From: Desulfobacterales bacterium
GTDB lineage: Bacteria; Desulfobacterota; Desulfobacteria; Desulfobacterales; UBA5616
Assembly (NCBI GenBank): GCA_046483495.1
Contig: JAWODC010000092.1
Location: 64,001-128,000, forward strand
Length of the DNA: 64,000 nt
Direction of reading: 5' to 3'
The position numbers and the translations under genes are program-made. Below are positions 23,226-64,000 of the stretch, in pieces; position 1 is the first letter of the stretch, and every line of letters starts with the position of its first letter. The notes under the pieces were generated by a model. That model saw only the letters and a list, made by a program, of their open reading frames with translations. It ran no database searches and was not told where the DNA came from.

Positions 23226-23243
23226 ATAAATGAATTCCCCTAT
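23226..23243. promoter_or_regulatory. 18-bp box (weak copy) upstream of USP
   Basis: ATAAATGAATTCCCCTAT, ~90 bp before the ATG. Confidence 0.45.
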
Positions 23244-23333
23244 GGCAATTTGGCTTCGTCACGACTATAGATGTTAGAAAACCCACCCGAGCCGAGATGC
23301 GGCGCAACTTGGGAAATAAACGAGGAGACCGAT

Positions 23334-23777
23334 ATGTTTGGCAAAATTTTATTTCCAGTGGACCTTTCTGAGAATATGTATAAAATTCAGCCCGTCGTTA
23401 TTGAAATGGCGGACAAATTCAATTCGGAGATTCACTGCGTGTACTGCTTGCATGTCGCCATGTACTACTCGCATATCGGTCTCTCCGTGGCCTATGTGGC
23501 GGATTTTGAAAATCAGGCACGTGCAGAAGTCGAAAAAAAGCTGAAAAAATTCACGGCCGAAAACTTCCAAGGCCGCCGAATTCATTCCAAGATCCTGTCC
23601 GGGCGGCCCGGAGATGAAATCGTTCGTTATATTCATTCGGAAAATATGGACCTGGTTGTCATGGGACACAGCAGCACGGGTATTGAAAGGGCTTTATTGG
23701 GCAGTGTGGCGGCCCATGTCGTCAAGTATTCACCCGTACCGGTAATGGTCATCAGCCCTGGAGTACTGAAGGATTGA
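23334..23777 (+). CDS. Universal stress protein
   Basis: MFGKILFPVDLS, DLVVMGH, LLGSVAAHVVKYSPVPVMV; RBS GAGGAG. Confidence 0.95.
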   Translation: MFGKILFPVDLSENMYKIQPVVIEMADKFNSEIHCVYCLHVAMYYSHIGLSVAYVADFENQARAEVEKKLKKFTAENFQGRRIHSKILSGRPGDEIVRYIHSENMDLVVMGHSSTGIERALLGSVAAHVVKYSPVPVMVISPGVLKD

Positions 23778-23802
23778 CAATCGAACCGCACACTGCTGTT
23801 CG

Positions 23803-26800
23803 TCATATCCCCATCTCGATCGGCATGGGAACGGAGCAGGTCACCGGGAATTCTTTCATTTGGCCCGGCCCGATGACATATTCCTGTTCATTGTGGCTGA
23901 TTTTGATCGGCGGCTGATCACTGGGCAGGACGTATATTCTCAGGGTCTCTGAATCAACATCGATTTCCAATGTGTGACCCCTGTAACGAAGATGCATATG
24001 GAAAAATTCAAGCTCTTCGGGCAGACAGGGGTTGAACCGAAGCACCCTGTCCCTCACTTCGAGTCCCGTGTATCCCCGGGTGACCATGTCCACGGTTCCG
24101 GCCATGGCGCCGAGATGAATGCCTTCTTTCGTAGTGCCGCCCTGTATGTCTTCGATATCACTTTTCAGCGCCTCGCAGAAATGGCTCCAGGAGCCGGCCC
24201 GCGTGGCCCGGGCAAGAACCCACGAATGCACCACCCGGCTCAGGGTGGATCCATGGGAGGTGCGCTTTAAATAGTACGATATTGTTTTTGGAATCCATTC
24301 AGGGTCGAAGGTATACCCCAATCGGTCGAAAAGCCTATCGAGTTCCTCGGCGGACAACAGATAAAAGAGCATCAGGGTATCGGCCTGCTTGGACAACTTA
24401 TAGCGGTTGGGCGTATCCCCCTCCGCCTCGAGAATGCGGTCGAGACGGTGGATGTCGCCGTATTTTGCCCTGTATTTCGGCCAGTCGAATTCTTCCAGTT
24501 TGTCGAATCCCTCGAATTGGGCGAGGACGTTGTCTTCGATAAACACAACCTTCATTTTCCTGCTGACGGCATCCCATCGCCGCATTTCAGCCGAATTCAA
24601 ATTCAGCTTGGAGCAAAGTTGAAGCCGCCGCTCCAATGGAATGATGTCCAGCATCCAGAGCGCTCGACTGAGGACCCAAACGGTCATGACATTGGTGTAC
24701 GTATTGTTGTTCAAACCCGGCTCATCGGAATCGGGGTAAGCATCGTGATATTCATCCGGCCCCATGACGTTTTTCATTTCATACCGGTTCGAGGCCTTAT
24801 CGTAGGACGTTAGACTTGCCAGAAAACGGGCGATTTCAAGCAGCATTTCCGCACCGTAAAACGACATGAATTCGATATCATCGGTTACTTGATAATAAAG
24901 CCAGAGATTGTAGGCGATAGCGATGTTGACATGCCGCTGCAAATGAGAATTGTCCGGGAGCCACCGGCCGGACTTCGGGTTGTAATGCACCACCTGTGTT
25001 TCTTCACGACCGTTGCTTCCGCTCTGCCAGGGGTACATGGCCCCTTCATGGCCGGCGTTTTTCGCCGCCTGCCGGGCGGCGTCAAGTCGGTAGTAGCGGT
25101 ACATCAAGAGAGAACGGGTGATTTCCGGAAGCCTGAAATTCAAAAACGGGAAGATAAACAGCTCGTCCCAAAAAATATGGCCCCTATAGGCTTCGCCGTG
25201 CCAGCCTCTGGCTGGGACGCCGACGTCGATATCGATGGTGTGAAGGGAAACCGTCTGCAGAATATGAAAGATGTATAAATGGGTGATCAACCCGATGCGA
25301 TTGTCCCCGTCGCGGTTCTCGAACCTGAACTGGACATTGAATCGGCGCCATAGGTGCCACCACGCCCGAATGTGTGTCATGAGCAGATCATGAAACGATC
25401 CGGCTCTCTTCACGGCCGATCGGGCCTCGAGGCCGCATTCGGAGATGGCGTAATCCCGTGACGTATAGAGGGAGACGATTTTTTCCACCGTCAGGGTATC
25501 GCCCGTATGCAGCGATACCCGGGCGGTCTGCTCGATATAGCCTTCCCGAATCTCGTGCTGCCACTGTAATTGTATGGGTTCCAAATTATTGAAAACCCGG
25601 GTTCTGGCGGCAAGTGCCACACGAATATCGGATTGTGAGGTGCGGACTTTGAGGTACAGCGTTTCCGGATTTACGGCAAACGCTTCCATGGGACGGAGAT
25701 GCCGGCTGTTCAGGTCTTTGTAGCGCTCCACTCCCGCGTTGGTCACCGTGCCGTCCAACGCGCTGCGGATATCCACCTCCCCGGACCAGTTTACCGCCAT
25801 CAGGTTGATTTCCTCGGCAGCCATGTGGGCGTTTTCCATGTGGACGAATCGCCTGCAAAACAAAATCGATTCCCGGCCCTGCTTATCACGGAAACGAACC
25901 TCTCGATGCAAAATACCGCTTTTGATGTCCAGTTCCTGCCGGTACATAAGAATATCGACGTGCTTCAGTTCGACCCATCGGCCGCCGTCGATTCGAAATT
26001 GAACCGGAAGCCAGTTCGGCATGTTGACAAGGTCCTCGTTTACTATGATACGGCCCGCCACTTCAGTGCCCAGCCGGTTATAACCTCCTGCAAGATACAT
26101 CCCCGGGTAATGGATGTCGTCGGCATGCGATTCCGCAGCGGCCCCCCGTGTTGCAAAGTAGCCGTTGCCCAGTGTGCAGAGCGCTTCACGGAGACCCTCT
26201 TCGGTCGGTATAAAACCCGTGTAGGTGAGCCACCATTGGTGACGGGTTTCACGTGCGGTGCCGGTCAGAAATTGCAAAAACTGCCGGACCTCCTCCGTAC
26301 TGTCAACGGCGAAATGCGCATAGGTGGGTCGGGAGTGCTTGTCACGGACGATAACGCCAAGGCCGCCGATACGCCCCAACTCTCTGAAAGCGTCTTCATC
26401 CGTCGTGTCATCTCCGATATATATGGGGAGAACATCCGGCCGGTCCAGCTGCAGTTTTTCCAGCAGCCACAGCAGCGCCTTGCCCTTGTGCCAATCTATG
26501 GCGGGTTTTAATTCGAAAACCTTTTTTCCGGTTGATTTGCGGAATTCTTCAAATTCCTCCAGGACCTCATCCAGTCCGGCTTCGATTTTAGGCACATCAT
26601 CATCGGCTGCCTGCCGAAAATGTACAGCTATGGAAAATTTTTTGTGCTCAACCACCGCGCCGTGGATCGGTTCGAGTTTCTTTTTCAATGCCTGTGCGAC
26701 CCGCTCGAGGGCCGGGATAAATTCGGTCCCCTTTTCGTGCCGGATTTGCTGATATCCGGGTGCTGCGATATCGAATCCGTGGCTCCCGCCGTAGAGCAGC

Positions 26801-27093
26801 GGGTCAAGACCAACCAGCGATTTCACATCTTCGAGATCCCTCCCGCTCAAAATGGAAACCGTGCAGTACGTTGCGAGATCCTTCAATGTTTCCCGCATGG
26901 ATTCCGACATCACGGCGAGCTCGGGCCGTTCGACGATGGGGGTCAGGGTGCCGTCATAATCCAGAAAAACGGCAAATTTTTTATTATCGGAGATTTCCTT
27001 TATGTCCTCGGACCTCACCAGAGCCGAGGATAGACTCCCCGTATTGGACTGGGAATCGGTAATCGCTGGTATCGGGATAATGTCTGCTTCCAT
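23803..27093 (-). CDS. Trehalose-6-phosphate phosphatase (HAD) fused to a GH65 glycoside phosphorylase (OtsB1-like)
   Basis: [27 protein letters not shown]65 [34 protein letters not shown]. Confidence 0.93.
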
Positions 27094-27162
27094 GGTACAT
27101 CCTCTGCTGTCGCCTATAGGTTCGGTGCCGTCGCGGTGTTGAATTACATGTCACCATTTAAA

Positions 27163-27969
27163 TTACCGGCAAAAAGGGGCGTTTTTCACTTCGGGCAGTT
27201 TTTCCGGTGTAAAATAAGCATTGGAAATGTCGTCCTTCACTTCGGAGCGCTTTGCCACCCACTCGGTGCTGGTTTTTTCAAAGTGATCGAACATCTCCAT
27301 GGTAAAGCTGATCACATTTCCATCCGGATCCATTTTGGCATCGGAAAAGACCAGGGTCTTCCACAGATCCCCGCCTATATCATAATAATAGCGTTTAACC
27401 GGCATAAAATTGTCGGCAGATACAAACGTTATGATTTTAGAGTAATAAGCGCTTGAACGAGGTATGGATTTCAGAACCACGATATCCTCTTTTTTCTCAT
27501 CGTGATCGGGCATCAGTTCGTGGTCGGCCCAAGGGTCGATAAAACCGATGTCTGTGTAAGTGAAATCGGTTCCGAGAAAGGGTTCATATGTGAAAATATT
27601 GTTTATTCTTCGAATTCGATTAAGTGACGGCGCATAGACCCACGTGTTGATCGCACGTTGTTTCAGCGGTTCTCTGATTAATATCGTAAATCCGTAAAGG
27701 GGTTCGGGTTCTCTGATCATTATCAGAATTTTCTTTTCATCATCGATGGTTTTGCGTATTTCGCACGCCTCCCATTCCATGGTCGTGTCATTTTGGAATT
27801 TGATGTTGACGTGGATATCACGAACCATGGTCTCTTCCGGTTCCAGCAGTTCCTTTATTTCGGTCAACACCTTTTCAGCCGTTATGGATTGGGCCTGGGA
27901 TAACGGCAATGCCGCAATAAGCGTGATGCAGAAAACGATTACATGAGTCGTGAACATCTTTTTTGCCAT
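27163..27969 (-). CDS. Outer-membrane lipoprotein-sorting (LolA-like/DUF1329) protein
   Basis: Signal peptide; WVYAPSLNRIRRI, FLGTDFTYTD, YYDIGGDLWKT. Confidence 0.8.
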   Translation of the reverse strand: MAKKMFTTHVIVFCITLIAALPLSQAQSITAEKVLTEIKELLEPEETMVRDIHVNIKFQNDTTMEWEACEIRKTIDDEKKILIMIREPEPLYGFTILIREPLKQRAINTWVYAPSLNRIRRINNIFTYEPFLGTDFTYTDIGFIDPWADHELMPDHDEKKEDIVVLKSIPRSSAYYSKIITFVSADNFMPVKRYYYDIGGDLWKTLVFSDAKMDPDGNVISFTMEMFDHFEKTSTEWVAKRSEVKDDISNAYFTPEKLPEVKNAPFCR

Positions 27970-28209
27970 TCTTCACCGCCTTTCCATTGTTTCCGGTTAT
28001 AGGTCACCTTCCGGGTTCATGCCGGGCGCATTTCGGACCGTTCGCCGGTGGAGCACAAATTCGCCGAAAAGACTCCAGAACCGCAACGCCGGGCAAGAAC
28101 GCAACGTTAAGCATCTTCATTATCGAATTCCGATTGTACCATTCCTGCCGATTTCGTGAAGTAGGTAGATAATGTATTTTACAAAGGACGGCATGTAAAG
28201 GAGCGACAG

Positions 28210-28641
28210 TCAGCAGACAGGATGATGCGGATTTTCCAGCGGGGGCTTGCCCGCCTTTAAGCGCATCCAGTTGACCATATTGAGAACACGCGGACGGCAA
28301 AGGATGCGCCGAATCAGGCGGCGTTTGCCGGGGATGTTTGATAACGAGATCCCGACGGCCATTGTAAGCAGCCCCTGTCCGGGCAGAACGAGCATCGCTA
28401 TGCCGGCGATCACGAGAATAATGCCCAATCCGTTTTTAAAAAATAAGTACGGCCACAGAATAGGTGCGGAAAGATTGTAGGTTTTTTCGCCTTCCCCCGT
28501 CAAGTAACCTCGTGGAAGCCAAATGACCAGGAGCGGACCGATCATCACCATGGCAAAAAATAGAACGAGCGAGGCCAGCGCCGCCCATCCCAGAATATTT
28601 TCATGTGTTTCCAGCCAGGTCCACATCATTTCCGCCATCAT
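28210..28641 (-). CDS. PGPGW-family transmembrane protein
   Basis: KNGLGIILVIAGIAMLVLPGQGLL motif. Confidence 0.8.
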   Translation of the reverse strand: MMAEMMWTWLETHENILGWAALASLVLFFAMVMIGPLLVIWLPRGYLTGEGEKTYNLSAPILWPYLFFKNGLGIILVIAGIAMLVLPGQGLLTMAVGISLSNIPGKRRLIRRILCRPRVLNMVNWMRLKAGKPPLENPHHPVC

Positions 28642-29316
28642 TTAAATGTGAATGAGCCGGTATTTAACGGCTATTTTGATCAGATCGGACGTCGATTGGA
28701 CATCCATTTTTTCCATGATATTGTATTTATGGGTTTCAACGGTTTTGGGGCTGATATAGAGGCGTTCCCCTATTTGACCGGGCGTCAGTCCATCGGCCAG
28801 AAGAAGGAAAATCTCCTTTTCGCGCTTGCTGAGGTTTTCAATCCGCCGCCGAACGTTATTGGAAATTTTCTGTTCTTCCTCATTTTCCAGAAAGGTGAGG
28901 TGGGACTGGAGAATTTGACGCACGGCGTTGCTGTAAAAAACGGCTCCGGATTGAATAGTATTAACGGCAAGCAAAACTTCTTCCAATGGTTCATCTTTTA
29001 AAATACAGCCGGAAATGCCCATCCCGAAGAGGGTAATGATTTCCTCCGGGTTGGCCGTCATGGTGAACACCAGAATTCTGGTTCCTTCATTATCCTTTCG
29101 AATCCGCTTCACCACTTCGATGCCGCTCAGATTCGGCATCGCGATGTCCAGAATGATAAGGTCGGGATTCAAGGCGTCGACTTGTTCCAGGGTTTGCGTT
29201 CCATCCTGCGCCAGCCCGACAATTTCCACATCAGGTGCCGCTTTCAGGATTTTGGTCAGGCCCTCCAGGACGACCTGATGGTCGTCGGCGATTAATATTT
29301 TCGTGTTGCCGGCCAT
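28642..29316 (-). CDS. NarL/FixJ-family response regulator
   Basis: ILIADDH, LDIAMP, LSKREKEI, ISPKTVETHKYNIMEK. Confidence 0.95.
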   Translation of the reverse strand: MAGNTKILIADDHQVVLEGLTKILKAAPDVEIVGLAQDGTQTLEQVDALNPDLIILDIAMPNLSGIEVVKRIRKDNEGTRILVFTMTANPEEIITLFGMGISGCILKDEPLEEVLLAVNTIQSGAVFYSNAVRQILQSHLTFLENEEEQKISNNVRRRIENLSKREKEIFLLLADGLTPGQIGERLYISPKTVETHKYNIMEKMDVQSTSDLIKIAVKYRLIHI

Positions 29317-29365
29317 TGTATTTCCTTTAACCGTGTTGAAATATTTGTCGGAATCCTTGCCGATC

Positions 29366-30253
29366 TCAGGTTGTTTCCAGCGCCTCGAACCCTGAAACAA
29401 TGTCTAAAAGTTCACCGGTAATCGCCATTTGCCGGCGACGGTGGTATTCCATACTTAAATCGTCGAGCTCTTCCTGAATATTTTTTTCCGCCTGCTGCAT
29501 GGATTGAAGGCGACTTTGATTTTCACTGGCCATCGATTCGGCAAATGCCTTGTAAATGGCTGTAAACAGATGCTGCTTGATCAGGGATGAAAACATGGCG
29601 GTCGTATCCATCGTAATCATGGGTAGACATCGACTCGGCCATTCTTTTTTCTTCAATTCTTCCACCCACTGCTGATCGATGGGAAGCAGCCGTTCAGCAT
29701 GCGGCAAAAAGCCGGTTTTCTCCGGTTTTATGCTGTAATAAAGCCAGATCCGGCGTGGTGACCAGCGCCTTTCCCACTCGTCGATAACCGAGAGAATATC
29801 CTGGACATGAGAGGTGATGCCCGCCACGGACCCCGGGACCCGGATATAAGCGTCAACCGGGTGACCCACGCGTTCCAATTTGCGTTTCATGCGGGCTCCG
29901 ACGGCGATAAACCGCATGTTCCCCGTTTCGGGCGGGAGAGATTGCCGCAGATGCTTCAGCGTATGGTTGAGAACGACATCATTGAGCTGTCCGGCCATGC
30001 CCTGGTCGGAACCGAACACAACGGCACCGACGTGACCGTCCCGTGTTTTTCGGTCTTCTGCAAGAGGCGGCAAAGGATGCGACACCACCACCTGCATCGC
30101 CATGTCGATCGTGCGGGAAAACGCTCGAAGTGAGAGCACGGCTTTCTCGTATTGCTTGATTCTCACAGATGCCATCGCTTTCATGGTTTTAACCACCGAT
30201 TCCAAATCCGTGACACTGTCGATTTTTCGTTTTAATGCTTCAATGGTCTGCAT
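29366..30253 (-). CDS. atpG: N-ATPase gamma subunit
   Basis: VKTMKAMA, GSDQG, ASENQSRL, RQMAITGELLDI. Confidence 0.95.
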   Translation of the reverse strand: MQTIEALKRKIDSVTDLESVVKTMKAMASVRIKQYEKAVLSLRAFSRTIDMAMQVVVSHPLPPLAEDRKTRDGHVGAVVFGSDQGMAGQLNDVVLNHTLKHLRQSLPPETGNMRFIAVGARMKRKLERVGHPVDAYIRVPGSVAGITSHVQDILSVIDEWERRWSPRRIWLYYSIKPEKTGFLPHAERLLPIDQQWVEELKKKEWPSRCLPMITMDTTAMFSSLIKQHLFTAIYKAFAESMASENQSRLQSMQQAEKNIQEELDDLSMEYHRRRQMAITGELLDIVSGFEALETT

Positions 30254-30256
30254 ATG

Positions 30257-31780
30257 TTAATCCATGTGCAAGGCACGCTGCGCCGCCTTTATTAATGCCT
30301 CGATTTCCGCATCGCCGATTTTTTCACCGGATTCGATTTTCCGGCATACCTCCGGAAGCGTATCCGATACCTCCCTACTGATCTTCTCGATGGCTGCGGG
30401 CACCTCATTAAGGTTGAATGCGTCGAATATCCCTTCGTTCAGGGAAACGAGAGCGGCAATTTGTTCACATACGGGCATAGGGTGGTACTGGGGCTGTTTA
30501 AACGCTTCTCGTATTCTTCGTCCCCTCACCAGCGTTGAGCGGGTTTCTTCGTCCATCTGCGTGCCGAATCGGGCGAAAGTTTCCAACTCTTCGAATTGGG
30601 AATAGGCCAGGCGCAGGTCTCCCGATACCGTTCGAAATGCCGGCAGCTGGGTCTTCCCCCCCACCCTGCTGACCGAGCGTCCCACATCCACAGCCGGCAG
30701 AATTCCCTTCCTGAAGAGATCGGGAGACAGGTAAATCTGTCCATCCGTAATTGAAATCAGGTTGGTCGGAATGTATGCGGATATGTTCTGCGCCTCGGTT
30801 TCGACAATCGGCAGGGTGGAAAGGGATCCTCCTCCGCCCTCCTTTTTCAGGTGCGTTGAACGCTCCAAGAGCCGCGAATGAATGTAGAATATGTCGCCGG
30901 GAAATGCCTCTCTTCCGGGCGGCCTTCGCAAAAGAAGAGCGATTTCCCTGTAGGCCCTTGCATGCCGGGTAAGGTCATCAAGCACCACTAAAACATCCAT
31001 TCCCCGGTCCATGAAAAATTCTCCCACTGCCATGGCGGCGTATGGGGTGATATATTGCAGGCCCGGTGGATCTTCCTCGGTTGAAACTACGGCGACACTG
31101 TATTTCATGGATTCGTAACGGCGCAGATCATCGATTAATTTTGCAACGGCGGACGCCCTTTTGCCGATGCCGCAGTAGATGCAGACCATATCCCCCTCGT
31201 TCTGGTTGATAATGATGTCGAGGGCTATCGCTGTTTTGCCGGTTTGACGGTCGCCGATAATGAGCTGCCGTTGTCCCCGGCCGATGGGAATCAGGGCATC
31301 GATGATTTTAATTCCCGTCTGTAGCGGAACCGTTACCGGCAATCGGTCCATCATGGAGGGTGCAGGCTTTTCCAGGGGATAGCGGCGGTCGCTTTTGATC
31401 GGCATCCCATCGTCAAGGGTTTCCCCCATGCCATTGACTATTCGGCCCAAAAGGGATTCGCCGACAGGTATCGTGAGGATTTCACCGGTCAAATAGACTT
31501 CATTGCCTGCTGCCAGGTGTTTGTTGTCATCTAACAGAACGATTCCGGTTTCCGTTTCTCTCAGGTCGAAGGCGATTCCGTATGCTGCACCCGGCAATCG
31601 AATCATCTCCTGGTTTCGTACGCCGGAAAGTCCCGTTGCCCGTATAATGCCCGGCCCGATATAGGTGATCGTGCCGACGTTTTGGACGGTGAGCTCCGGT
31701 GGCAGGGATTTTCCGGCGTTTTCGATGACCTCGGCGGCGCCGTCAAGTGATCTTTTTAGAATACTGGTGTTTTCGTTCAT
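30257..31780 (-). CDS. atpA: N-ATPase alpha subunit
   Basis: GDRQTGKT, RRPPGREAFPGD, PTNLISITDGQ. Confidence 0.97.
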   Translation of the reverse strand: MNENTSILKRSLDGAAEVIENAGKSLPPELTVQNVGTITYIGPGIIRATGLSGVRNQEMIRLPGAAYGIAFDLRETETGIVLLDDNKHLAAGNEVYLTGEILTIPVGESLLGRIVNGMGETLDDGMPIKSDRRYPLEKPAPSMMDRLPVTVPLQTGIKIIDALIPIGRGQRQLIIGDRQTGKTAIALDIIINQNEGDMVCIYCGIGKRASAVAKLIDDLRRYESMKYSVAVVSTEEDPPGLQYITPYAAMAVGEFFMDRGMDVLVVLDDLTRHARAYREIALLLRRPPGREAFPGDIFYIHSRLLERSTHLKKEGGGGSLSTLPIVETEAQNISAYIPTNLISITDGQIYLSPDLFRKGILPAVDVGRSVSRVGGKTQLPAFRTVSGDLRLAYSQFEELETFARFGTQMDEETRSTLVRGRRIREAFKQPQYHPMPVCEQIAALVSLNEGIFDAFNLNEVPAAIEKISREVSDTLPEVCRKIESGEKIGDAEIEALIKAAQRALHMD

Positions 31781-32592: not shown

Positions 32593-32596
32593 GCCG

Positions 32597-35410: not shown

Positions 35411-35416
35411 AAATGT

Positions 35417-55255: not shown

Positions 55256-55468
55256 ATGAGTGACAGCGTATACAAGGTGATAACGCTGGTAGGGTCCAGC
55301 TCGGAAAGCTGGGAAAAGGCGGCGGCAAAAGCGGTTGAGGTTGCCGCCGGTTCCCTGCGCGATTTGAGAATCGCGGAAGTCGAAGAATTCGATTTGCAGA
55401 TCGAAAACGGCAAAATTCTCAGTTACCGCGTAAAAGTAAGGGTCTCCTTCAAATATCAGAAAGAGTAA
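55256..55468 (+). CDS. Dodecin-family flavin-binding protein
   Basis: VYKVITLVGSSSESWEKAA...YRVKVRVSFKY; RBS AAGGAGGT. Confidence 0.93.
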   Translation: MSDSVYKVITLVGSSSESWEKAAAKAVEVAAGSLRDLRIAEVEEFDLQIENGKILSYRVKVRVSFKYQKE

Positions 55469-55482: not shown

Positions 55483-55511
55483 GGGGTAGCATCTCGGTCG
55501 AATGCTACCCC
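55483..55511. terminator. Hairpin between convergent dodecin and YbhB genes
   Basis: GGGGTAGCAT-9nt-ATGCTACCCC. Confidence 0.65.
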
Positions 55512-55957
55512 CTTTCATAGCGGCCCATCAATTCTGTTTTTTCGATGATGTGGCCGGACATGGCATTTTCCAGTTGCGCTTTGGTCGATTTTTCGGGCAG
55601 GTCCAAATCATCATCGAGGGCGAACAGTTTAAAAAAATACCGGTGCTCCCGGTCAGGCGGACAGGGGCCGAAATAACCCGGTTGCCCGTTTGTCCCGAGC
55701 CCTGCGGCTCCTTTGGGTTCTTCTCCTTCTGGGATGGCGCGTGTAGCCGCCGGTATATTGAAAACAACCCAGTGGTCCCACATTCCATCCTCTTTTAAAT
55801 TCTTTGGGACATCGGGATCTTCCATGATCAGAGCGAGACTTTTCGCCGCTGCCGGAACATCTTCCACGCTTAAAGGCGGACTGATATTTTCACCGTCACA
55901 GGTGTATTTGGATGGAATTTTCCCGTCATGTTCAAACGCCGAACTGGTGAGTTTCAT
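55505..55957 (-). CDS. YbhB/YbcL (PEBP/Raf-kinase-inhibitor-like) protein
   Basis: YTCDGENISP, EDPD, WDHWVVFNIP, YFGPCPP, HRYFF. Confidence 0.94.
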   Translation of the reverse strand: MKLTSSAFEHDGKIPSKYTCDGENISPPLSVEDVPAAAKSLALIMEDPDVPKNLKEDGMWDHWVVFNIPAATRAIPEGEEPKGAAGLGTNGQPGYFGPCPPDREHRYFFKLFALDDDLDLPEKSTKAQLENAMSGHIIEKTELMGRYERG

Positions 55958-56099
55958 GGCATTCTCCTCTTCCTGGTGTTTGCAGCAAGCCATTCACTAT
56001 ACCGGAGTGTGATTATGGCTTACAGTAATTGAAAATTAAAATCAATGCGGCTGTTTACTTGAACAGGAATTTTCATAACATTGGGTTCGCCCAAAAAAA

Positions 56100-56117
56100 A
56101 TAGGGTTAATCCTGTAT
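56100..56117. promoter_or_regulatory. 18-bp box (strong copy) between divergent ybhB and polX
   Basis: ATAGGGTTAATCCTGTAT. Confidence 0.65.
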
Positions 56118-56246
56118 ATTATCGCAACAAACGTTATGGATAATAGGATAATGAATTATCGTTTTGACCCATTCATTTTTTCAGAAGATAGAAGTAATGT
56201 AACCGTATAAAAATGGGTCGGCGAAGATAGAAAGGACCTGTAACCC

Positions 56247-57968
56247 ATGCCTGTTCAGAACAAAGATGTCGCGGATATGTTAAAAAAGATGGGGGACCTG
56301 CTGGATATCAAAGGGGATAATCCATTTCGGGTGCGTGCATACCGGAACGCCGCCAGGATGATTTCAAGCCTGCCGCAGGATCTATCCGAGATGGTCGAAC
56401 AGGGCGCCGATCTGACCCGTCTCAGCGGCATTGGAAAAGACCTTGCCGTTAAAATCACAGAGATCCTCGCAACGGGAAAACTGCCGCAGCTCGAAAAGCT
56501 GGAAAAATCGATGCGGCCGGAGCTCCTTGAACTGTTAAAGATCAATACCCTGGGACCGAAGCGGATCAAGGCTCTTTACCGCGAACTGGGCATTGCCGAT
56601 TTGGCGGATCTCGAACGCGCGGCACGGGAAGAAAAAATCAGGGAGATTAACGGATTCGGTGAAAAGACGGAGAAAACCATTCTGAAGGTTTTGCAGGCGG
56701 CACCCGGACCGCAGCCGCTCACGAAGTTTATCGACGCAGAACAGCGGGCCCGCCCCCTGTGCAGGCATTTAAGCGCCGCCCGCGGCGTAAAGGACATCGT
56801 GATTGCCGGCAGCTTTCGCCGCCGCAAAGAGACGGTCGGCGATTTGGATATCCTGGTCACCTGCGAGGATGGGACCGAGGTAATGTCCCGGTTCAAGGGC
56901 TATGAAGATGTTCAAACCGTTCTTGCCTGGGGAAAAACAAAATCATCGGTGGTTCTTCGGTGCGGACTCCAGGTGGATTTGCGGGTTGTTCCCGAGGTGG
57001 TTTACGGTGCGGCACTCCATTATTTTACCGGATCGAAAGCCCACAATATCGCCGTACGCACAAAGGCTGTCAAAAAAAGATTGAAGATCAACGAGTACGG
57101 CGTTTTCAGGGGAAACGAACGTGTCGCCGGCCGTACCGAAGAGGAGGTCTACGCCGCCGTAGGCTTGCCATATATCGAACCCGAACTGAGAGAAGATCAG
57201 GGGGAAATTCAAGCTGCTGGAAAAAGCCGATTGCCCCGACTGGTGACATTGGCGGATATGAAAGGCGATTTGCACGCGCATACGAACCGAACGGACGGCC
57301 GTGCAACACTTGAAGAAATGGCATCGGCGGCCGCAGCCCTGGGATACAATTATCTCGCCGTTACAGAGCATTCGAAGCGCGTTTCCGTTGCTGGAGGACT
57401 CGATGAAAAAGAGCTTGCCCGGCAGATGGATGAAATCGACCGACTCAATGAAAAGCTTTCCCGAATCCGCCTGCTCAAAAGCATCGAGGTGGATATTCTG
57501 AAAAACGGAGATCTGGATTTACCTGACGACATTTTAAAGCAACTCGATCTGACGGTTTGCTCGGCCCATTACTACCGGAATCTGTCCCGGGAAAAGCAAA
57601 CCGATCGCATTATACGTGCCATGGATAACCCTTGCTTCAATATTCTGGCCCATCCGACCGGGCGCATTATCAACGAACGCAGTCCATTGGAACTGGACAT
57701 GGAGAAAATCCTGATAGCGGCAAAGCAGAGGAACTGCATCCTTGAAATCAATGCCCATCCGGACCGACTGGATTTGACCGACCGCTATTGCCGTGCGGCC
57801 AAGGAAATGGGCGTCAAAATGGCGATCGCAACGGATGCGCATTGCGAGGAGGATTTGAATCTCATGAGATACGGCGTTTACCAGGCTCGAAGGGGCTGGC
57901 TCGAGGCCGGAGATGTCGTTAATACGCGTAGTCTGGAAGACTTGATGTGCGTGATACGAAGAATTTAG
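56247..57968 (+). CDS. polX: DNA polymerase X with PHP domain
   Basis: NPFRVRAY, AGSFRR, GDLDIL, VDLR, YFTGSKAHN; PHP DLHAHT, TEHS, TDAH. Confidence 0.96.
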   Translation: MPVQNKDVADMLKKMGDLLDIKGDNPFRVRAYRNAARMISSLPQDLSEMVEQGADLTRLSGIGKDLAVKITEILATGKLPQLEKLEKSMRPELLELLKINTLGPKRIKALYRELGIADLADLERAAREEKIREINGFGEKTEKTILKVLQAAPGPQPLTKFIDAEQRARPLCRHLSAARGVKDIVIAGSFRRRKETVGDLDILVTCEDGTEVMSRFKGYEDVQTVLAWGKTKSSVVLRCGLQVDLRVVPEVVYGAALHYFTGSKAHNIAVRTKAVKKRLKINEYGVFRGNERVAGRTEEEVYAAVGLPYIEPELREDQGEIQAAGKSRLPRLVTLADMKGDLHAHTNRTDGRATLEEMASAAAALGYNYLAVTEHSKRVSVAGGLDEKELARQMDEIDRLNEKLSRIRLLKSIEVDILKNGDLDLPDDILKQLDLTVCSAHYYRNLSREKQTDRIIRAMDNPCFNILAHPTGRIINERSPLELDMEKILIAAKQRNCILEINAHPDRLDLTDRYCRAAKEMGVKMAIATDAHCEEDLNLMRYGVYQARRGWLEAGDVVNTRSLEDLMCVIRRI

Positions 57969-58176
57969 AATGTATCTGATCCCCGGCGGATGCGAATCGT
58001 TTTGCAATTCGATCGGATTTTGGTTAAACTGGAATTTCAAATGTCAGGGTTCATGTCTACGCGATTTGGGCCATCCGCCGGCATCGACTGATCCGCCGGA
58101 AAGGCCAGAACCGCAGCGCCGGGCAAGGCCGCGACCAGCTTGGAGAAACGATCTGTCAAGCCAAGGAGACGAAGAA

Positions 58177-59301
58177 ATGGAAGAAAAAAGCAATCCAATG
58201 GAACTGGAAAACATATCCGATATTCAGATAGTCATGGATCTGGTTTCTGACTTGATCTGCATTATCGATAAAGACGGCTGCTTTACTTTTCTCAATATGG
58301 CCTGGGAAGAAACGGTGGGCTATGCAGTACACACCTTAAAAGGTAAACCGTATCTTGATTTCGTCCATCCGGAGGACCGTGAAAAAACGGAGACGGAATT
58401 TAAGAAGCACTTGACGGGGTATCCCACACCGACGTTCGAAAGCCGGTTTAAATGCAGTGACGGCACCTTTACGGTTCTTGAAGTACGAATGTTATCGCCT
58501 GATCAAAACCGCATTTTGGCCGTTGCAAGGGATATGACAAAAGAGAAGAAGAATGAAGAAGCCATCCGATACAACGAAACCCGGTTCAGGACTTTATTTG
58601 AAAATGCCTTGAACCCGATATTCGAGATTGATGGGGATGGGAGGTTTCTCAACGCCAATACGGCCGCCCTCGATTTTTTGGAGTGCAGTCGCGGTGAAAT
58701 CTTTTCTAAACGGTTGTCTGATTTTTCGACGCAAAAAGATTCGGGTCGGGCGCTTAAACCCGGTGCATCTCTGGAGACCGGCATTTTTGAAGAAGATTAT
58801 GTCGTTAACGGGAACCTCAAAACACTGATTCTGCGCATGGCCCCATTGGACGTTGAAGACGTGAAAACGTTTTGCGCCATTGGATATGATGTCACAGCAT
58901 TCAGAAAAGAGGCCGAAGAAATCCGCGAAGAAGCCGCACCCGCCAAGATCCGTGTCCTGTTGGCCGATGATCATCCGGTTATGCGGGATGGGTTGTCCCA
59001 ACTGCTTTCTTTGCAGCCGGATATCGAGGTTGTCGGTGAAGCATCGGATGGGAAAGAAGCGGTGGAGAAAACCCGTGAAATGTCACCGGATGTCGTATTA
59101 ATGGATGTCAACATGCCCAACATGAACGGCGTTGAAGCGACACGATTGATTCATTCGGAATATCCCGATATTCGAATCATCGGGTTGTCCATGTTCGGGG
59201 TTGACTCAAAAGCCTCGGAAATGATTTATGCAGGCGCATCCGCCTATCGGTCTAAAAGCGGCAATACCGATTTGCTCGTCGCATCGATTCGCGGAACCTG
59301 A
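58177..59301 (+). CDS. PAS-PAS-receiver protein (no kinase or output domain)
   Basis: RBS AAGGAG; FVHPED PAS, second PAS, LLADDH...LMDVNMP receiver at the C-terminus. Confidence 0.85.
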   Translation: MEEKSNPMELENISDIQIVMDLVSDLICIIDKDGCFTFLNMAWEETVGYAVHTLKGKPYLDFVHPEDREKTETEFKKHLTGYPTPTFESRFKCSDGTFTVLEVRMLSPDQNRILAVARDMTKEKKNEEAIRYNETRFRTLFENALNPIFEIDGDGRFLNANTAALDFLECSRGEIFSKRLSDFSTQKDSGRALKPGASLETGIFEEDYVVNGNLKTLILRMAPLDVEDVKTFCAIGYDVTAFRKEAEEIREEAAPAKIRVLLADDHPVMRDGLSQLLSLQPDIEVVGEASDGKEAVEKTREMSPDVVLMDVNMPNMNGVEATRLIHSEYPDIRIIGLSMFGVDSKASEMIYAGASAYRSKSGNTDLLVASIRGT

Positions 59302-59372
59302 TGCGGCATGCCGATTTCAGGAGGCGTTAAGAGCGGATCTGCTTGCAGATTACGAGTAGAAAGGATCGAAAA

Positions 59373-60473
59373 ATGGCAAAAGACCCGGTATGCGGCATGG
59401 AAGTCGATGAACGGCGGAGCCATTCGCATAAAGCGGTTTACATGGGAAAAACATACTATTTCTGCTCGAATGACTGCAAGGCGACGTTTCAGCGCAATCC
59501 CGAAAAACACATCAAAGCCTCCCGATCACCCGTTACGGCCAAGCGAAAAGTCGTGGTGGTCGGAACAGGAGAAGTGGGAGCCACCTTATGCTTCGCCCTG
59601 CTGATAAGCGGTCTCGCCTCGGATATCGTTCTCATTGACAAAGACTTCGAGAGAGCCGAAGGCCATGCGATGGATTTGAATCATGGTCTTTCATTCGTGC
59701 AGCCCACCCGTATTTTCGCCGGTAATTATCCGGACTGCAGGGACGCTGATGTCGTCATCGTAACCGCGGGTGCCGCGCAGAAGAAAGGGGAAACACGCCT
59801 GGACCTCGTTCGAAAGAATACGGAAATTTTCAGAGACATCATACCTAAGACAACCGAATACGATCCAGGAATTATTCTGATCGTTTCCAATCCGGTGGAC
59901 ATTCTGACCTATGCAGCCTATAAATTTTCCGGATATCCCATGAACCGTGTCATCGGGTCCGGAACCACCCTGGACACCGCCCGCTTTCGATTTTTACTGA
60001 GCCGTCACTGCCGAGTCGATCCGCGAAACGTCCACGCGTACATCATCGGGGAGCATGGGGACAGCGAAGTCCCGGTGTGGAGCCAGGTGAACATCGCCGG
60101 AGTGCCGTTGAGGGATTACTGCCCTGTGTGCAGCCGTAATTGTGGCCCGGAGGAGCAGAACGAAATCTTTCAACAGGTCAAGCATTCGGCCTATGAAATC
60201 ATCAATCGCAAAGGGTACACCAATTTTGCCATAGCGCTTGCCCTCGTCCGCATTCTGAACAGCATACTTCGCGATGAAAACAGCGTCCTGACCGTCTCAA
60301 GCCTGATTGACAATTACTACGGTGTAAAAGATGTCTGCCTCAGCATTCCATGCATTTTGAATGTCAACGGCGTCTTTCAACACATTTATATCAACCTGAA
60401 TGAGGCGGAGCGCAGCTTGTTTCGGGATTCCGCCGATACGCTGAAATCAATTATCAAAGAACTCCGTTTATAA
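59373..60473 (+). CDS. ldh: L-lactate dehydrogenase with N-terminal YHS/TRASH domain
   Basis: KDPVCGM...YYFCSNDC; GTGEVG, GAAQKKGETRLDL, SNPVD, LDTARFR, GEHGDS. Confidence 0.92.
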   Translation: MAKDPVCGMEVDERRSHSHKAVYMGKTYYFCSNDCKATFQRNPEKHIKASRSPVTAKRKVVVVGTGEVGATLCFALLISGLASDIVLIDKDFERAEGHAMDLNHGLSFVQPTRIFAGNYPDCRDADVVIVTAGAAQKKGETRLDLVRKNTEIFRDIIPKTTEYDPGIILIVSNPVDILTYAAYKFSGYPMNRVIGSGTTLDTARFRFLLSRHCRVDPRNVHAYIIGEHGDSEVPVWSQVNIAGVPLRDYCPVCSRNCGPEEQNEIFQQVKHSAYEIINRKGYTNFAIALALVRILNSILRDENSVLTVSSLIDNYYGVKDVCLSIPCILNVNGVFQHIYINLNEAERSLFRDSADTLKSIIKELRL

Positions 60474-60529
60474 TTTCCGGCTGGTGAGCGGGCTGAAAAG
60501 CATTCATTACCTGCAACAAGGAGAAAAAA

Positions 60530-61576
60530 ATGCTTAACATCATAAAAGAATATTTAGGGGATGAAACGGATTCCCTGTTGACCTATGCGGCAAAATTTCC
60601 AAAAGAGCAGCTGCATCTGCCGGGCCCGGACTTTGTGGATCGCGTTTTTTACCATTCAGACCGTTCGATCAACGTGATGAAAAACCTCCAGCGTATTTTT
60701 CAGACCGGCAGGCTGGGGGGAACGGGATACCTGTCTGTTTTGCCGGTCGATCAGGGCGTTGAACACTCTGCAGGCGCATCTTTCGCTCCGAATGCGATCT
60801 ATTTCGATCCTGAAAACATCGTCAAGCTGGCGGTGGAAGGCGGATGCAATGCCGTTGCGTCAACACTCGGAGTGCTGGGAATGGTTTCCCGCAAGTATGC
60901 CCACAAGATTCCATTTATCATGAAAATAAATCACAACGAATTGTTGACGTATCCCAATACATACGACCAGATATGCTTTGGAAGCGTCGATCAGGCGTTC
61001 GACATGGGGGCGGCCGCCGTCGGCGCCACCATTTATTTTGGATCTGTGGAAAGCGACAGGCAGATCATGGAAGTCAGCGAATCATTTCGGTATGCGCACG
61101 CACGGGGCTTGGCAACCGTTTTATGGTGCTATACAAGAAATGCCGAATTCAACCGGGATAAGGATTACCATGTCTCCGCCGATTTAACCGGCCAGGCCAA
61201 TCATCTCGGCGTTACCCTTCAAGCCGATATCATAAAGCAAAAACTGCCGAAGAATACGGGGGGGTTCAAAGCCCTCGAATTCGGCAAATACGACGAGCGA
61301 ATGTATACGGAATTATCGTCGGACCACCCGATCGACTTGACCCGTTACCAGGTGATCAACAACTATGTGGGGCGGGCCGGGTTGATCAACAGCGGCGGTG
61401 CGTCAGGGAAAGACGATTTCAAAGACGCCGTTAGAACCGCCGTCATCAACAAGCGCGCGGGTGGAATGGGACTGATCACGGGCAGAAAGGCATTTCAGCG
61501 GCCCATGAAAGAGGGCATCGAACTGCTTCACCTGATTCAGGACGTTTATTTGGAAAAGCGTATCGAAGTCGCATAG
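60530..61576 (+). CDS. fbaB: Class I fructose-bisphosphate aldolase (DhnA type)
   Basis: [39 protein letters not shown]. Confidence 0.95.
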
Positions 61577-61745: not shown

Positions 61746-63317
61746 CTAACCTGCCCGATAGAGGTTTTCAATGTACATGGAAGCGGTTTCGTCCCAGGAA
61801 AATCGTTTTTCGGCCGCCCGGCTACACAAGTGATCCCATCGATCCGGGGCGTCTTTCTTCATCATCAGGGCATCACGGATGGCGATGACAAAATGATCCA
61901 CCTGTTCGCACAGGGTGGCCCCGGTAAAGGCGAATCCATCGATACCGGGCTCTATCGTATCCTTCAATCCCCCCACGTGGTGAACGAGACACGGTTGACC
62001 GTCCCGCATGGCCAGCATCTGGCTGATCCCGCAGGGTTCGAACGAACTGGGCATCAGAAAGAGATCGCCGTTTGCATACAAGAGATCTGCACACGTGCCG
62101 GAAAACCCGTTTAGAAAGATGAATCGTTCAAACCGGGCGCTCATATCGGAGAAAAATCGCTCATATTCGGGGTCTCCTGTTCCTAAAAGGATATACAAAC
62201 CGTTGTGCGATTCCAAAAGGCGCAGAATTTCCAGAAATCCGGTGTTTCCGGTCGAGCCGCGGGATTTCATCAGGAGCATTTTTTGGTCCGTTAGGCGGCT
62301 GACACTGGTGGCCAGAATGAAGGGGCGTTCTGTCCGCATGCATTCGGAAAGCCTGGCGAATGCCAAAAAGTGGGAAGTCGCCGTTGTCTGTTTTCCCTCG
62401 GTCCAATTCAGAACGGCAGACTTGAATACGCCGATCATATCGTGAAAATCGAGCTTCGGGGGGCGCCGGCTTCCCGGATACGGACAACCGTTCAGAATGC
62501 CGAAAAGCCGGTTGTTGTGCTTTGCGAGTCTGAGATCCGTCTCCAGGCATTCGCCACCGGAAAATACATCGGGTTTGCGGCACGGTGCCAGGAGTTCCTC
62601 GGCATAAGAGGGAGAAACGGTGTGAACGGCTTCGGCAAACCGGATGCCCGCAGCCATCGGATTTACGCAATTCGTCCAGGTGGGATCGGAAATTTCCATG
62701 GGGTTGTAAACCATTTCCGGCCACCAGGCATTCAATGATGATTCATCCCCTGCCATTGGACGGGTCCCCTGAAGGGCGAGATTGTGAATGGTAAAGACGG
62801 TACGGATGGTTTTCAGCGAGGAAAAATCGGTGTGGAAACGGCGCAGTATGAGGAAAAAAGCACAGTGCCAGTCGTGCAGATGGATGCAGTCCGGACATTC
62901 GATCCGGCCTTTTACGATGGCGGCTGCCAGTGCCGTGCAGAACAATGAGAACCGGTCGGCATCCGTGGCGAAAGGGCGGTCTGAAGGGTCATTCATGTAG
63001 ATCCGATATTTCCCCGCCGCCGGTGCCGCAAACAGCGGATGATCGAAAACCAGGTGCAGGACGGGGTCCTCCGGGATACGGGCGTTCACTCGGTGGATAT
63101 CCGCCTTTTGGCTCAAACCCCGAAAATGAAAATCAACCGAGCCGATATATTCGGCGGGATTTTCAAGGTGAATAAAACCATATGAAGGGATAACCGTGGT
63201 CAGCCGGCATGACTGTTTCGCCAGGGCAGGTCCGATTTCACCGATGACATCGGCCAGTCCTCCGGCCTTTGCATACCGCAGCGCATTGTTTTCCGCGGCC
63301 GCCATCAGAATGTTCAT
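61746..63317 (-). CDS. glgA: Glycogen synthase (GT5)
   Basis: KAGGLADV, HLHDWH, FTIHNLA.QG, TVSPSYA, MPSSFEPCGISQM, VGGLKDT. Confidence 0.92.
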   Translation of the reverse strand: MNILMAAAENNALRYAKAGGLADVIGEIGPALAKQSCRLTTVIPSYGFIHLENPAEYIGSVDFHFRGLSQKADIHRVNARIPEDPVLHLVFDHPLFAAPAAGKYRIYMNDPSDRPFATDADRFSLFCTALAAAIVKGRIECPDCIHLHDWHCAFFLILRRFHTDFSSLKTIRTVFTIHNLALQGTRPMAGDESSLNAWWPEMVYNPMEISDPTWTNCVNPMAAGIRFAEAVHTVSPSYAEELLAPCRKPDVFSGGECLETDLRLAKHNNRLFGILNGCPYPGSRRPPKLDFHDMIGVFKSAVLNWTEGKQTTATSHFLAFARLSECMRTERPFILATSVSRLTDQKMLLMKSRGSTGNTGFLEILRLLESHNGLYILLGTGDPEYERFFSDMSARFERFIFLNGFSGTCADLLYANGDLFLMPSSFEPCGISQMLAMRDGQPCLVHHVGGLKDTIEPGIDGFAFTGATLCEQVDHFVIAIRDALMMKKDAPDRWDHLCSRAAEKRFSWDETASMYIENLYRAG

Positions 63318-63385
63318 TGCCGTCTCCGTTTCAAAGGTGAATGCGTTTGAATTGTCACTTATATAACAAGATACAATGCATTGAA

Positions 63386-63403
63386 ATACATTCATTGCCC
63401 CAT
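63386..63403. promoter_or_regulatory. 18-bp box (weak copy) between divergent glucosyltransferases
   Basis: ATACATTCATTGCCCCAT, ~70-75 bp from both start codons. Confidence 0.4.
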
Positions 63404-63477
63404 TTCCATTGTGCTTACCTCATGTTAGACATGATCTTCATAGCCCGTCTCGAACGAAAGATCCGAAGGAGGAGCCG

Positions 63478-64000
63478 ATGAAAATCGCCATGCTGACCAG
63501 GGAATATCCCCCTCATATCTATGGCGGCGCCGGCGTTCATGTGGACAATCTGACCCGTGAACTGAGCAGACTCGACAACAGGGCTCACGAGTTTCATGTA
63601 TGGTGTTTTGGTGAACAGGACGGCGTTGAAAAAAACATTCGCATTCGAGGAATTCAACAGCAGCCCCAAATGGGGAACGGCATCTATAATCATCCGGTTA
63701 TCGTGGATGCCCTGACCCGTAACACGGTAATGGCGGATACGGTGCAGCAGGCCGATCTCGTCCATTGTCATACGTGGTACACCCATTTTGCCGGCTGCCT
63801 GCTGAAAGAACTTTTAAGTGTGCCCCTGGTGATAACCACCCACTCGCTGGAACCTCACCGGCCGTGGAAGGAAGAGCAGCTGAAGAGAGGGTATTCGGCC
63901 GCATCCTGGCTGGAGAAAACCGCCTATGAAAACGCGGACGGCGTCATTGCCGTATCCGCAGCGATGAAACAAGACGTTCAGGCGCTTTACCATGTTCCGG
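63478..64000 (+). CDS. GT4 glycogen-synthase-like glucosyltransferase (actinobacterial GlgA/GlgM type), partial
   Basis: Not in ORF track. Manual translation MKIAMLTREYPPHIYGGAGVHV...HCHTWY...TTHSLEPHRPWKEEQL; RBS AGGAGG. Confidence 0.9.
   Translation, partial: MKIAMLTREYPPHIYGGAGVHVDNLTRELSRLDNRAHEFHVWCFGEQDGVEKNIRIRGIQQQPQMGNGIYNHPVIVDALTRNTVMADTVQQADLVHCHTWYTHFAGCLLKELLSVPLVITTHSLEPHRPWKEEQLKRGYSAASWLEKTAYENADGVIAVSAAMKQDVQALYHVP

Follow-up and report, generated by a model that had tools for sequence, protein, structure and literature searches.

The 64,000-nucleotide stretch analyzed here (positions 64,001 to 128,000 of the forward strand of contig JAWODC010000092.1, GenBank assembly GCA_046483495.1, from a Desulfobacterales bacterium of the UBA5616 lineage; hereafter, the window) carries an island of stress, storage, and repair genes at window positions 23226-64000. 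A 20-bp promoter box shared by island genes recurs across the genome, and the regulon that it defines is genome-wide; the island is one hot spot among at least five, and the program is not limited to it. We consider it probable that this is a general-stress or persistence regulon run by NarL-type response regulators in a dsrAB-bearing sulfate reducer. Observed in the DNA are the box with its geometry and targets and the link of the box to one subgroup of NarL-type genes (subgroup A); binding, activation, and the inducing signal are what we infer.

The box was first noticed, on reading the intergenic regions of the window, as a recurring ATAGGGTTAATCCTGTAT. In gene sense its consensus is AATACAGGATTnACCCTATT, followed by 21 unconserved nucleotides and then by TAnnnT. 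With up to 3 mismatches, the 18-mer ATAGGGTTAATCCTGTAT is found 4 times in the window versus 0.00 times in 100 shuffles; because the pattern was derived from these window sites, it is the genome-wide tests that carry weight. The 18-mer occurs 23 times in the 4.19-Mb genome, where about 3 occurrences would be expected by chance (our own estimate), and a genome-wide search allowing up to 3 mismatches returned 45 matches versus 2 for the pattern read backwards, an independent control. A seed position weight matrix (PWM; threshold, 16) found 97 sites scoring at least 16, against 9 in a Markov-shuffled genome, and 48 scoring at least 20, against 0. Of these 97 sites, 58 fall between genes, even though our crude open reading frame (ORF) caller labels 90.6% of the genome as coding. 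A later, 54-column matrix trained on oriented sites (threshold, 15) gave 151 sites genome-wide; a PWM iteration at a loose threshold drifted into AT-rich noise and was discarded. The shared promoter box claimed in a preliminary description of this DNA exists, by window shuffles as well as by genome-wide controls.

Within the island, the 54-column matrix finds 10 sites scoring at least 15, where 1.47 are expected (6.8-fold; Poisson p 3e-6), and one further box stands on the island boundary. This boundary box, AATAAATGAATTCCCCTATG (23225-23244, plus strand; score 24.6 with the same matrix), faces a universal stress protein (USP) gene, with TATAGA 21 nt downstream. The best box in the window (56099-56118, minus strand; score 36.2) faces the PEBP gene, and a weaker one (56154-56173, plus; 16.3) faces the PolX operon. 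On the minus strand, boxes also precede the BON gene (41314-41333; 33.3; TAAATT 21 nt downstream), the ferritin-like gene (48628-48647; 31.3; TATAAA 21 nt downstream), the DegP gene, which is divergent from the regulator gene NarL2 (44890-44909; 29.0), and the CAAX-UDG genes (54514-54533; 25.2). On the plus strand, they precede the GT4 glycosyltransferase gene (63385-63404; 20.2), orf149-dodecin (54641-54660; 16.9, with TAGAGT), and, more weakly, the DUF498 gene (48759-48778; 16.6). A near-palindromic second box lies 77 bp from the BON box (41391-41410), scores on both strands (17.3 on the minus and 14.9 on the plus strand), and may serve PRT-PRC on the plus strand, BON on the minus strand, or both. 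Since the box at 48628-48647 overlaps the longest-ORF start of the ferritin-like gene, the true start of this gene is placed downstream. Outside the island, a palindromic box-like site, AATACTTGAATACATGTATT (3456-3475; score 16.7), is located upstream of a 416-amino-acid ORF (2005-3255, minus strand).

The box is directional: where it has only one close neighbor gene, this gene sits on the side predicted by the box orientation. TAnnnT is present 20 to 22 nt downstream in 26 of the 64 sites scoring at least 18 versus 1 of the 48 sites scoring 13 to 14. If TAnnnT is the -10 element, the box would span about -53 to -34, with its center near -43.5. With its promoter-proximal edge 21 nt upstream of this -10 element, the box would take the place of the -35 region, and box-bearing promoters show no conserved -35 hexamer. 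Such a position is the geometry of a class II activator and suggests activation. The box itself is a dyad with conserved pairs, AATA...TATT on the outside and G...C on the inside; some sites score on both strands, and in relatives the box approaches the palindrome AATACAGT-N4-ACTGTATT. A directional box at a fixed distance from a downstream conserved element could also be a promoter element of an alternative sigma factor, for instance, a -35 element of the ECF type. We regard this as highly improbable: the 20-bp dyad and a perfect palindrome upstream of the regulator gene of a genus-mate are typical of a dimeric regulator, the downstream TAnnnT is the -10 pattern of sigma-70, and several sites score on both strands.

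Four other contigs are as box-dense as the island (C57, with 11 sites; C77, with 9; C88, with 5; and C70, with 15). The preliminary description had proposed a co-regulated persistence program in the island; island genes do share a cis-element (10 versus 1.47 sites), but the element, at about 151 sites, is not confined to them. Targets were classified by Pfam searches on 104 ORFs behind boxes elsewhere in the genome, together with full maps of C77 and C88. Ten kilobases beyond the window, a box precedes OtsA-GlgE-TreS/Mak-GlgB. Further targets are GAPDH, a DUF2267/BON-GalU-acylphosphatase-PGK-iPGM series, PfkB, a D-2-hydroxyacid dehydrogenase, PFOR, OFOR, the full PDH complex, and NDH-2. The best box in the genome (score 31.3) belongs to catalase (C88:20661), and the redox targets further include a rubrerythrin-ferredoxin-NAD(P) oxidoreductase operon and HAD-OsmC. 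Boxes also precede HSP20 (two copies), FtsH, NAPRTase, CBS proteins, gly-zipper/OmpA proteins, PRC-barrel proteins, a P-type ATPase, MlaEFD, CNNM/CorC, LpxC, RND efflux, and a REC-only protein with an M50/CBS protease. On C88, a box is followed by HSP20, a 3xBON gene, dodecin, and a second fusion of trehalose-6-phosphate (T6P) phosphatase with GH65, all divergent from a subgroup A NarL-type gene. In content, this target list corresponds to a general stress or stationary-phase response. The best RpoS match in the genome stays below the curated cutoff (TIGR02394; 282 versus 378.7 bits).

The same list could be read as a specific defence of a strict anaerobe against oxygen or oxidative stress, not as general stress or dormancy. 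Catalase, the rubrerythrin operon, OsmC, the DsbA-like and ferritin-like proteins, PolX, uracil-DNA glycosylase (UDG), the endonuclease/exonuclease/phosphatase (EEP) protein, NDH-2, and PDH all fit it, as does a box before Ni-SOD in the family-level relative G003. Desulfovibrio uses polyglucose for oxygen reduction, which also speaks for this reading. However, many osmotic, ion, envelope, and storage targets have no obvious oxygen tie, namely, OtsA-GlgE-TreS-GlgB, the BON/OsmY-like proteins, HSP20, the P-type ATPase, CNNM/CorC, Mla, LpxC, FtsH, and the N-ATPase run, and we find a dedicated oxygen defence rather unlikely as the meaning of the regulon.

Two further features of these contigs were seen. 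The boxes at C88:13048 and C88:18164 have nearly identical 60-bp flanks, which points to a duplicated promoter, with one copy before HSP20-BON-dodecin-GH65 and the other before a dienelactone-hydrolase-like gene. The box-rich contig C77 (6418-6813 and 21943-29412) also has a desulfoferrodoxin, a second GT5 starch-synthase-like protein, a GT4 protein, and a 761-amino-acid protein with no Pfam match.

Which protein reads the box is suggested by gene neighborhoods. The genome encodes 10 GerE-domain proteins. Subgroup A comprises NarL2 of the island, the protein at C77:32057 (58% identical), and that at C88:12065 (46-50%); subgroup B comprises the island regulators NarL1 and NarL3, which are 41% identical to each other. 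Each of the 3 subgroup A genes has a divergent neighbor driven by a strong box, and this box is 173 to 296 bp upstream. Orthologs of subgroup A are common (44-60% identity) among 40 relatives from the same order, and a box-like site lies within 350 bp upstream in 7 of the 17 loci with the best NarL2 matches, versus none of the 16 loci with subgroup B or other NarL-type genes (Fisher p 0.0046). In the genus-mate G001, the perfect palindrome AATACAGTAAACACTGTATT is present 77 bp upstream of the NarL2 ortholog. NarL-family control had been suggested before, and on these associations the best regulator candidates are likely the subgroup A response regulators, i.e., NarL2 and its paralogs on C77 and C88.

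The box may be real and yet be bound by another factor, such as a subgroup B NarL protein, a non-NarL dimeric regulator, or a repressor, with the subgroup A genes being mere members of the regulon. A box adjoining a regulator gene does not show binding, and in all three subgroup A cases the box points away from the regulator gene. Moreover, subgroup B genes are also in the island, where NarL1 lies inside the box-headed run from BON to the N-ATPase, and a box over -35 could equally be a repressor operator. Against these points stands the contrast in the relatives, in which the 16 boxless loci include the 3 best subgroup B orthologs. In addition, no other DNA-binding regulator family recurs beside boxes in 104 plus 51 ORFs, a 20-bp dyad near -42.5 is the arrangement of LuxR and its lux box, and the lack of a conserved -35 hexamer fits activation. 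A different binder thus appears unlikely to us.

Sensor kinases of the HisKA_3 type may provide the input to subgroup A. An adjacent PAS- or GAF-HisKA_3 kinase is encoded at 9 of the 15 orthologous regulator loci in relatives. The best match to this kinase in the present genome is a REC-HisKA_3-HATPase protein (C77:12976-14142; E 2e-49; next match, 4e-26), and its gene is preceded by a REC-only gene. A phosphorelay input is suggested by the receiver of the C77 kinase core together with the PAS-PAS-REC protein encoded in the island. The PAS-PAS-REC protein (57970-59301) is without an output domain, and its receiver is most like those of the NarL family; it may be the detached sensor half of an ancestral PAS-HisKA_3 kinase system. 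In the relative G029 (C15:9407-12195), a subgroup B and a subgroup A regulator are adjacent, each with its own PAS-HisKA_3 kinase; the island shows the same arrangement in its NarL2-NarL3 pair, but there the kinases have been lost.

In the proposed mechanism, the signal would enter via soluble PAS/GAF-HisKA_3 kinases, possibly through a phosphorelay, and a phosphorylated dimer of a subgroup A response regulator of NarL/LuxR type would bind the imperfectly dyad-symmetric 20-bp box at some 100 to 150 promoters. The bound regulator would recruit RNA polymerase carrying sigma-70 as a class II activator. Predicted to be switched on are compatible solute and storage sugars (OtsA, T6P-phosphatase/GH65, GlgE, TreS, GlgB, GT5, and GT4), glycolysis and fermentation (GAPDH, PGK, iPGM, FBA, PfkB, LDH, and PpsA), oxygen-tolerant pyruvate oxidation (PDH) together with NDH-2, peroxide and iron defence (catalase, rubrerythrin, the ferritin-like protein, and OsmC), envelope and protein quality control (BON, DegP, FtsH, and HSP20), DNA repair (PolX, UDG, and EEP), and ion homeostasis.

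Several points weigh against a NarL-run general-stress regulon as just described. The PWM was trained on this same genome, the -43.5 center assumes that TAnnnT is the -10 element, and our gene calls are crude longest ORFs, several of them on the wrong strand. In the island scan, no convincing box was seen for NarL2, NarL3-EEP, or the GT5/GlgA gene, and for the DsbA-like gene and the Rv2004c-like gene there is only a weak site at 52052 (score 11.8 to 12.5). The 17-gene minus-strand run from BON to GH65, with gaps of at most 69 bp, has one box only; none of the 16 genes behind BON, those for the N-ATPase and the GH65 fusion included, has its own box, and co-regulation of these two would depend on putative read-through from the 41314 box. 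Across 23000-42000, a terminator scan did no better than shuffles (29 versus 22.2 +/- 5.0), and neither did a promoter consensus scan (21 versus 17.0). An upstream box scoring at least 13 is found for 2 of the 19 USP genes versus 38 of 1000 random genes. The boxes beside subgroup A genes could mean that these genes are regulated and are not those of the binders, and no kinase gene was found adjoining any of the three subgroup A genes in this genome. In relatives, the exact box is weakly enriched (9 versus 3 in the genus-mate and 13 versus 2-3 in G003 and G005), and an apparent enrichment in G018 (24 versus 4) is due to an unrelated ATACAGGATTTACAGGAT repeat.

The dispersed G018 repeat with ATACAGGATTTACAGGAT amounts to about 20 copies on many contigs, often as inverted pairs 30 to 80 bp apart. 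Among family-level relatives, G003 has strong boxes before OFOR, Ni-SOD, and a USP gene, and G005 has one before a REC-only gene that is divergent from the regulator gene, as on C77. Upstream of the Rv2004c-like orthologs in 11 relatives, no box scoring at least 12 was found, save one weak site. The preliminary description had made synteny across relatives a point on which its reading would turn; here the evidence goes against it, the neighborhood of the Rv2004c-like gene being conserved in 0 of the 7 relatives examined.

As for the environment, many island genes are matched with 0 differences by contigs from four metatranscriptome libraries that bear the label salt lake (X2, X4, X5, and X7). 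They cover parts of the PRC, DegP, NarL2, NarL3, EEP, and ferritin-like genes and likewise parts of the AAA_33 gene, orf149, dodecin-PEBP, PolX, and PAS-REC. These matches place the organism, or a strain nearly identical to it, there; they do not show that the genes are transcribed or regulated. The RNA libraries may contain DNA; genes cannot be ranked by depth, and nothing follows from uncovered parts. Two contig ends lie near predicted starts (48587 versus 48594 for the ferritin-like gene and 56046 versus 56065 for PEBP), at most a weak hint that we do not count as evidence.

The gene content of the island was established by Pfam searches on 43 long ORFs and on small ORFs within 23226-64000, together with NCBIfam models; except where a coordinate stands alone, the families named below are Pfam matches. 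Every family named in the preliminary description as part of a dense stress, storage, and repair gene set was recovered. The boundary box is followed by the USP gene (23271-23777, plus; Usp E 2e-25), whose true start is probably later than the longest-ORF start. The last gene of the minus-strand run encodes a trehalose-phosphatase fused to the N, m, and C domains of GH65 (23803-27093, minus; 1096 amino acids; TIGR00685 over cutoff), an OtsB1-like architecture. NarL1 (28642-29400, minus; REC+GerE) is encoded directly behind the N-ATPase genes. The N-ATPase operon (29366-37176, minus) contains genes for beta, epsilon, AtpQ (ATPase_gene1), a CPA2 antiporter, AtpR, a, c, b/delta, alpha, and gamma; the beta subunit scores 800 bits against a TIGR03305 cutoff of 752, and with AtpR and AtpQ present the operon is of the alternate F1F0 type. 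The CPA2-type cation/proton antiporter gene is inserted between AtpQ and AtpR (33898-35130, minus); because the longest AtpR ORF (33621-34115) overlaps the 3' end of the antiporter gene, AtpR probably starts near 33900. Upstream in the run are PEP synthase PpsA (37204-39612, minus; NF005057 and TIGR01418 over cutoff) and, at its head, an OsmY-like protein with five BON stretches (39681-41048, minus).

Beyond this run, the plus strand encodes a PRT-domain protein (41343-42224) and a PRC-barrel protein (42272-43039), followed by the DegP/HtrA protease with trypsin and two PDZ domains (43358-44803, minus). NarL2 (45196-46029, plus; REC+GerE) probably starts at 45367 and precedes NarL3 (46600-47325, plus; REC+GerE) and the EEP family protein (47406-48170, plus). 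The ferritin-like protein (48217-48639, minus) is of the encapsulin type (EncFtn/EncB family) and passes the encapsulin-cargo EncB cutoff (NF058679), though an encapsulin shell gene was not seen in the window. Next to the DUF498 gene (48854-49210, plus), the intergenic region 49211-49424 holds a direct repeat of about 60 bp (TCCGGAAGGGGCATCTTTTGATCCGGAGCGGCGTTTTCGCCTTTTT is present twice), with an inverted copy of part of it in between. A VTT/DedA membrane protein and the Rv2004c-like kinase share 49425-51876 on the minus strand; the latter, an APH-like plus AAA_33 protein of 535 amino acids, occupies 50269-51876. Its APH half is a weak Pfam match (E 0.018), while many homologs carry PF01636 in precomputed annotation, and a scan of genome contigs with this protein gave 7 pattern matches, 0 of them confirmed. 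There follow a DsbA-like thioredoxin lipoprotein (52161-53159, plus), a CAAX protease and a UDG family protein (53168-54363, minus), orf149 (54688-55137, plus), dodecin (55256-55468, plus; E 1e-23), and a PEBP/YbhB family protein (55505-55993, minus; TIGR00481 over cutoff). The PolX operon (56247-61576, plus) begins with PolX (56247-57968; NCBIfam over cutoff), continues with the PAS-PAS-REC protein, and ends with a YHS-L-lactate dehydrogenase (LDH) and a class I fructose-bisphosphate aldolase (FBA), both over their NCBIfam cutoffs. The last genes encode a GT5 glycogen/starch-synthase-like protein (61746-63395, minus), which falls under the NCBIfam glgA cutoff (243 versus 328 bits), and the GT4 glycosyltransferase (63409 to the window end, plus). 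Ten kilobases upstream of the island are dsrB and dsrA (11098-13573, minus); as dsrA (12281-13549) exceeds the curated TIGR02064 cutoff, the label sulfate reducer is justified.

How does this regulon compare with known systems? RpoS in Escherichia coli and SigB in Bacillus subtilis control trehalose, OsmY/BON, OsmC, catalase, Dps/ferritin-like, glycogen, and small heat-shock protein genes from many promoters. The regulon described here resembles theirs in a similar output spread over many promoters and differs in that a predicted activator box upstream of a sigma-70-type -10 element takes the place of an alternative sigma factor. In the case of LuxR, a dimer with a GerE-type helix-turn-helix binds the lux box, a 20-bp inverted repeat with TACAGG that overlaps -35 and is centered about 42.5 bp upstream of the start site. 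A GerE-type helix-turn-helix regulator and a 20-bp dyad with TACAGG, predicted to lie over -35, are found here as well, but LuxR has an autoinducer-binding domain, whereas the regulator here has a phospho-receiver domain. More tentatively, we propose that the PAS/GAF-HisKA_3 kinase and the NarL subgroup form a master general-stress switch across the order, which in this organism would have a triplicated regulator, phosphorelay rewiring, more than 100 promoters, and convergently recruited gene families of the type that Mycobacterium tuberculosis has in its DosR regulon. If true, the switch would fill the role that RpoS, SigB, or EcfG has elsewhere.

Sulfate reducers survive episodes of oxygen, salt, and starvation in sediments, mats, and salt lakes, which makes their global control an issue. 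In the papers that our searches retrieved, we found no description of a global stress regulator for organisms of the Desulfobacterales type, and when we looked there for sulfate-reducer stress regulons of DosR-like or NarL type, we obtained only unrelated papers and reviews that name the two terms separately. In Desulfovibrio vulgaris, DVU3303-3305 is a "three-component" general stress system with UspA-domain targets, according to the available part of the response-regulator map (PMC3333781). It, too, is a response-regulator-controlled stress module in a sulfate reducer; in that part of the map, its regulator class differs from the five LytR/NarL-type regulators of D. vulgaris, its targets are few, a box comparable to ours does not appear, and a NarL-type general stress regulon is not described (PMC3333781). 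A box of 20 bp, a named candidate regulator, and about 100 promoters now make the question of stress control testable, and the target list predicts a switch to trehalose/polyglucose metabolism, oxygen-tolerant pyruvate oxidation, and DNA repair. The kind of system, a motif-linked stress regulon under a two-component regulator, is known; the version found here is new.

The preliminary description had compared the island with the dormancy regulon of M. tuberculosis under DosR (DevR). According to the accessible text of PMC3177182, the DevR regulon has about 48 genes. Its 20-bp palindromic box has in either half a GGGACT motif with which DevR makes contact; at least 2 boxes are required, the proximal ones being listed 33 to 34 nt from the start point. 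The members named there include the USPs Rv1996, Rv2005c (with Rv2004c in its operon), and Rv2623, as well as Rv2006/otsB, Rv0571c, and ctpF (PMC3177182); alpha-crystallin, a phosphofructokinase, and a cation ATPase are also given as DosR members in the consulted portion of PMC3721108. The present regulon is like that of DosR in the predicted pairing of a NarL-family response regulator with soluble HisKA_3 sensor kinases, in a putative 20-bp dyad-type operator near -35, in the location of regulator genes amid their targets, and in families such as USP, alpha-crystallin/HSP20, PfkB, P-type ATPase, T6P phosphatase of the OtsB type (in this genome as a fusion with GH65), the Rv2004c-like kinase, and PRT. 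All three island regulators have the Pfam pair Response_reg and GerE of the NarL family. The four architectures that had been taken as signs of DosR (USP, OtsB1-like, APH-AAA, and PRT) are represented by their families, the third with the weak APH half noted above.

Could the regulon be a true homolog of the mycobacterial DosR-DosS/T system, with regulator, box, and targets inherited or horizontally transferred together? Both have REC+GerE as regulator family and HisKA_3 as kinase type, a GAF-HisKA_3 kinase is encoded next to the regulator in one relative, seven gene families overlap as far as the available text of PMC3177182 and PMC3721108 lists them, and the 33 to 34 nt between Dev boxes and transcription start in that of PMC3177182 are close to the -34 edge deduced here. 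Nevertheless, we consider common origin scarcely credible. DevR (3c3w) ranks 6th, 14th, and 8th for the three island regulators in a ranking based on PDB phmmer searches only, behind NarL, VraR, and DesR, the best matches being NarL 1a04 and VraR 5hev, and no NCBIfam equivalog cutoff is reached. The half-site G4G5G6A7C8T9 given in the excerpt of PMC3177182 is absent from the box, i.e., GGGACT does not occur in the consensus AATACAGGATTnACCCTATT. DevR promoters need at least 2 boxes by the same excerpt (PMC3177182), whereas in this genome the 97 sites scoring at least 16 include two sites within about 250 bp in no more than about 7 promoter regions, a count that could miss weak secondary sites. 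Furthermore, 17 of the 19 USP genes are without a box, so that most USP genes stand outside the regulon, and the Rv2004c-like gene has no conserved synteny in relatives. The regulon here is also about 3 times larger, adding catalase, rubrerythrin, trehalose/GlgE, glycolysis, PDH, and DNA repair; and, the host being a strict anaerobe, hypoxia cannot be the cue, unlike for DosR. The earlier comparison thus holds for the shared design and the seven gene families and fails for orthology: judged by sequence, the regulon resembles the tuberculosis dormancy regulon in design and has no common descent with it.

A comparable DosR-like motif-linked island has already been described, the lxa locus of Burkholderia cenocepacia, with 50 genes and one motif of FNR/Anr type at 17 intergenic points in the available part of its report (PMC3721108). 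As presented there, lxa is likewise a stress, storage, and metabolic island with one motif, co-regulated loci elsewhere in the genome, and incomplete synteny in relatives, and its authors also saw gene-family overlap with the DosR regulon (PMC3721108). It differs in its TGA-N6-TCA motif and its CRP/Anr-like candidate regulators, and its low-oxygen induction in an aerobe is documented there by expression and deletion data, whereas the present regulon is known from its DNA (PMC3721108). The DosR, lxa, and present gene sets thus overlap under three unrelated regulators (NarL type with two different boxes, and FNR type), which suggests a convergent quiescence toolkit. If the mycobacterial dormancy families were indeed recruited independently, such a toolkit for bacterial quiescence would have been assembled by convergence.

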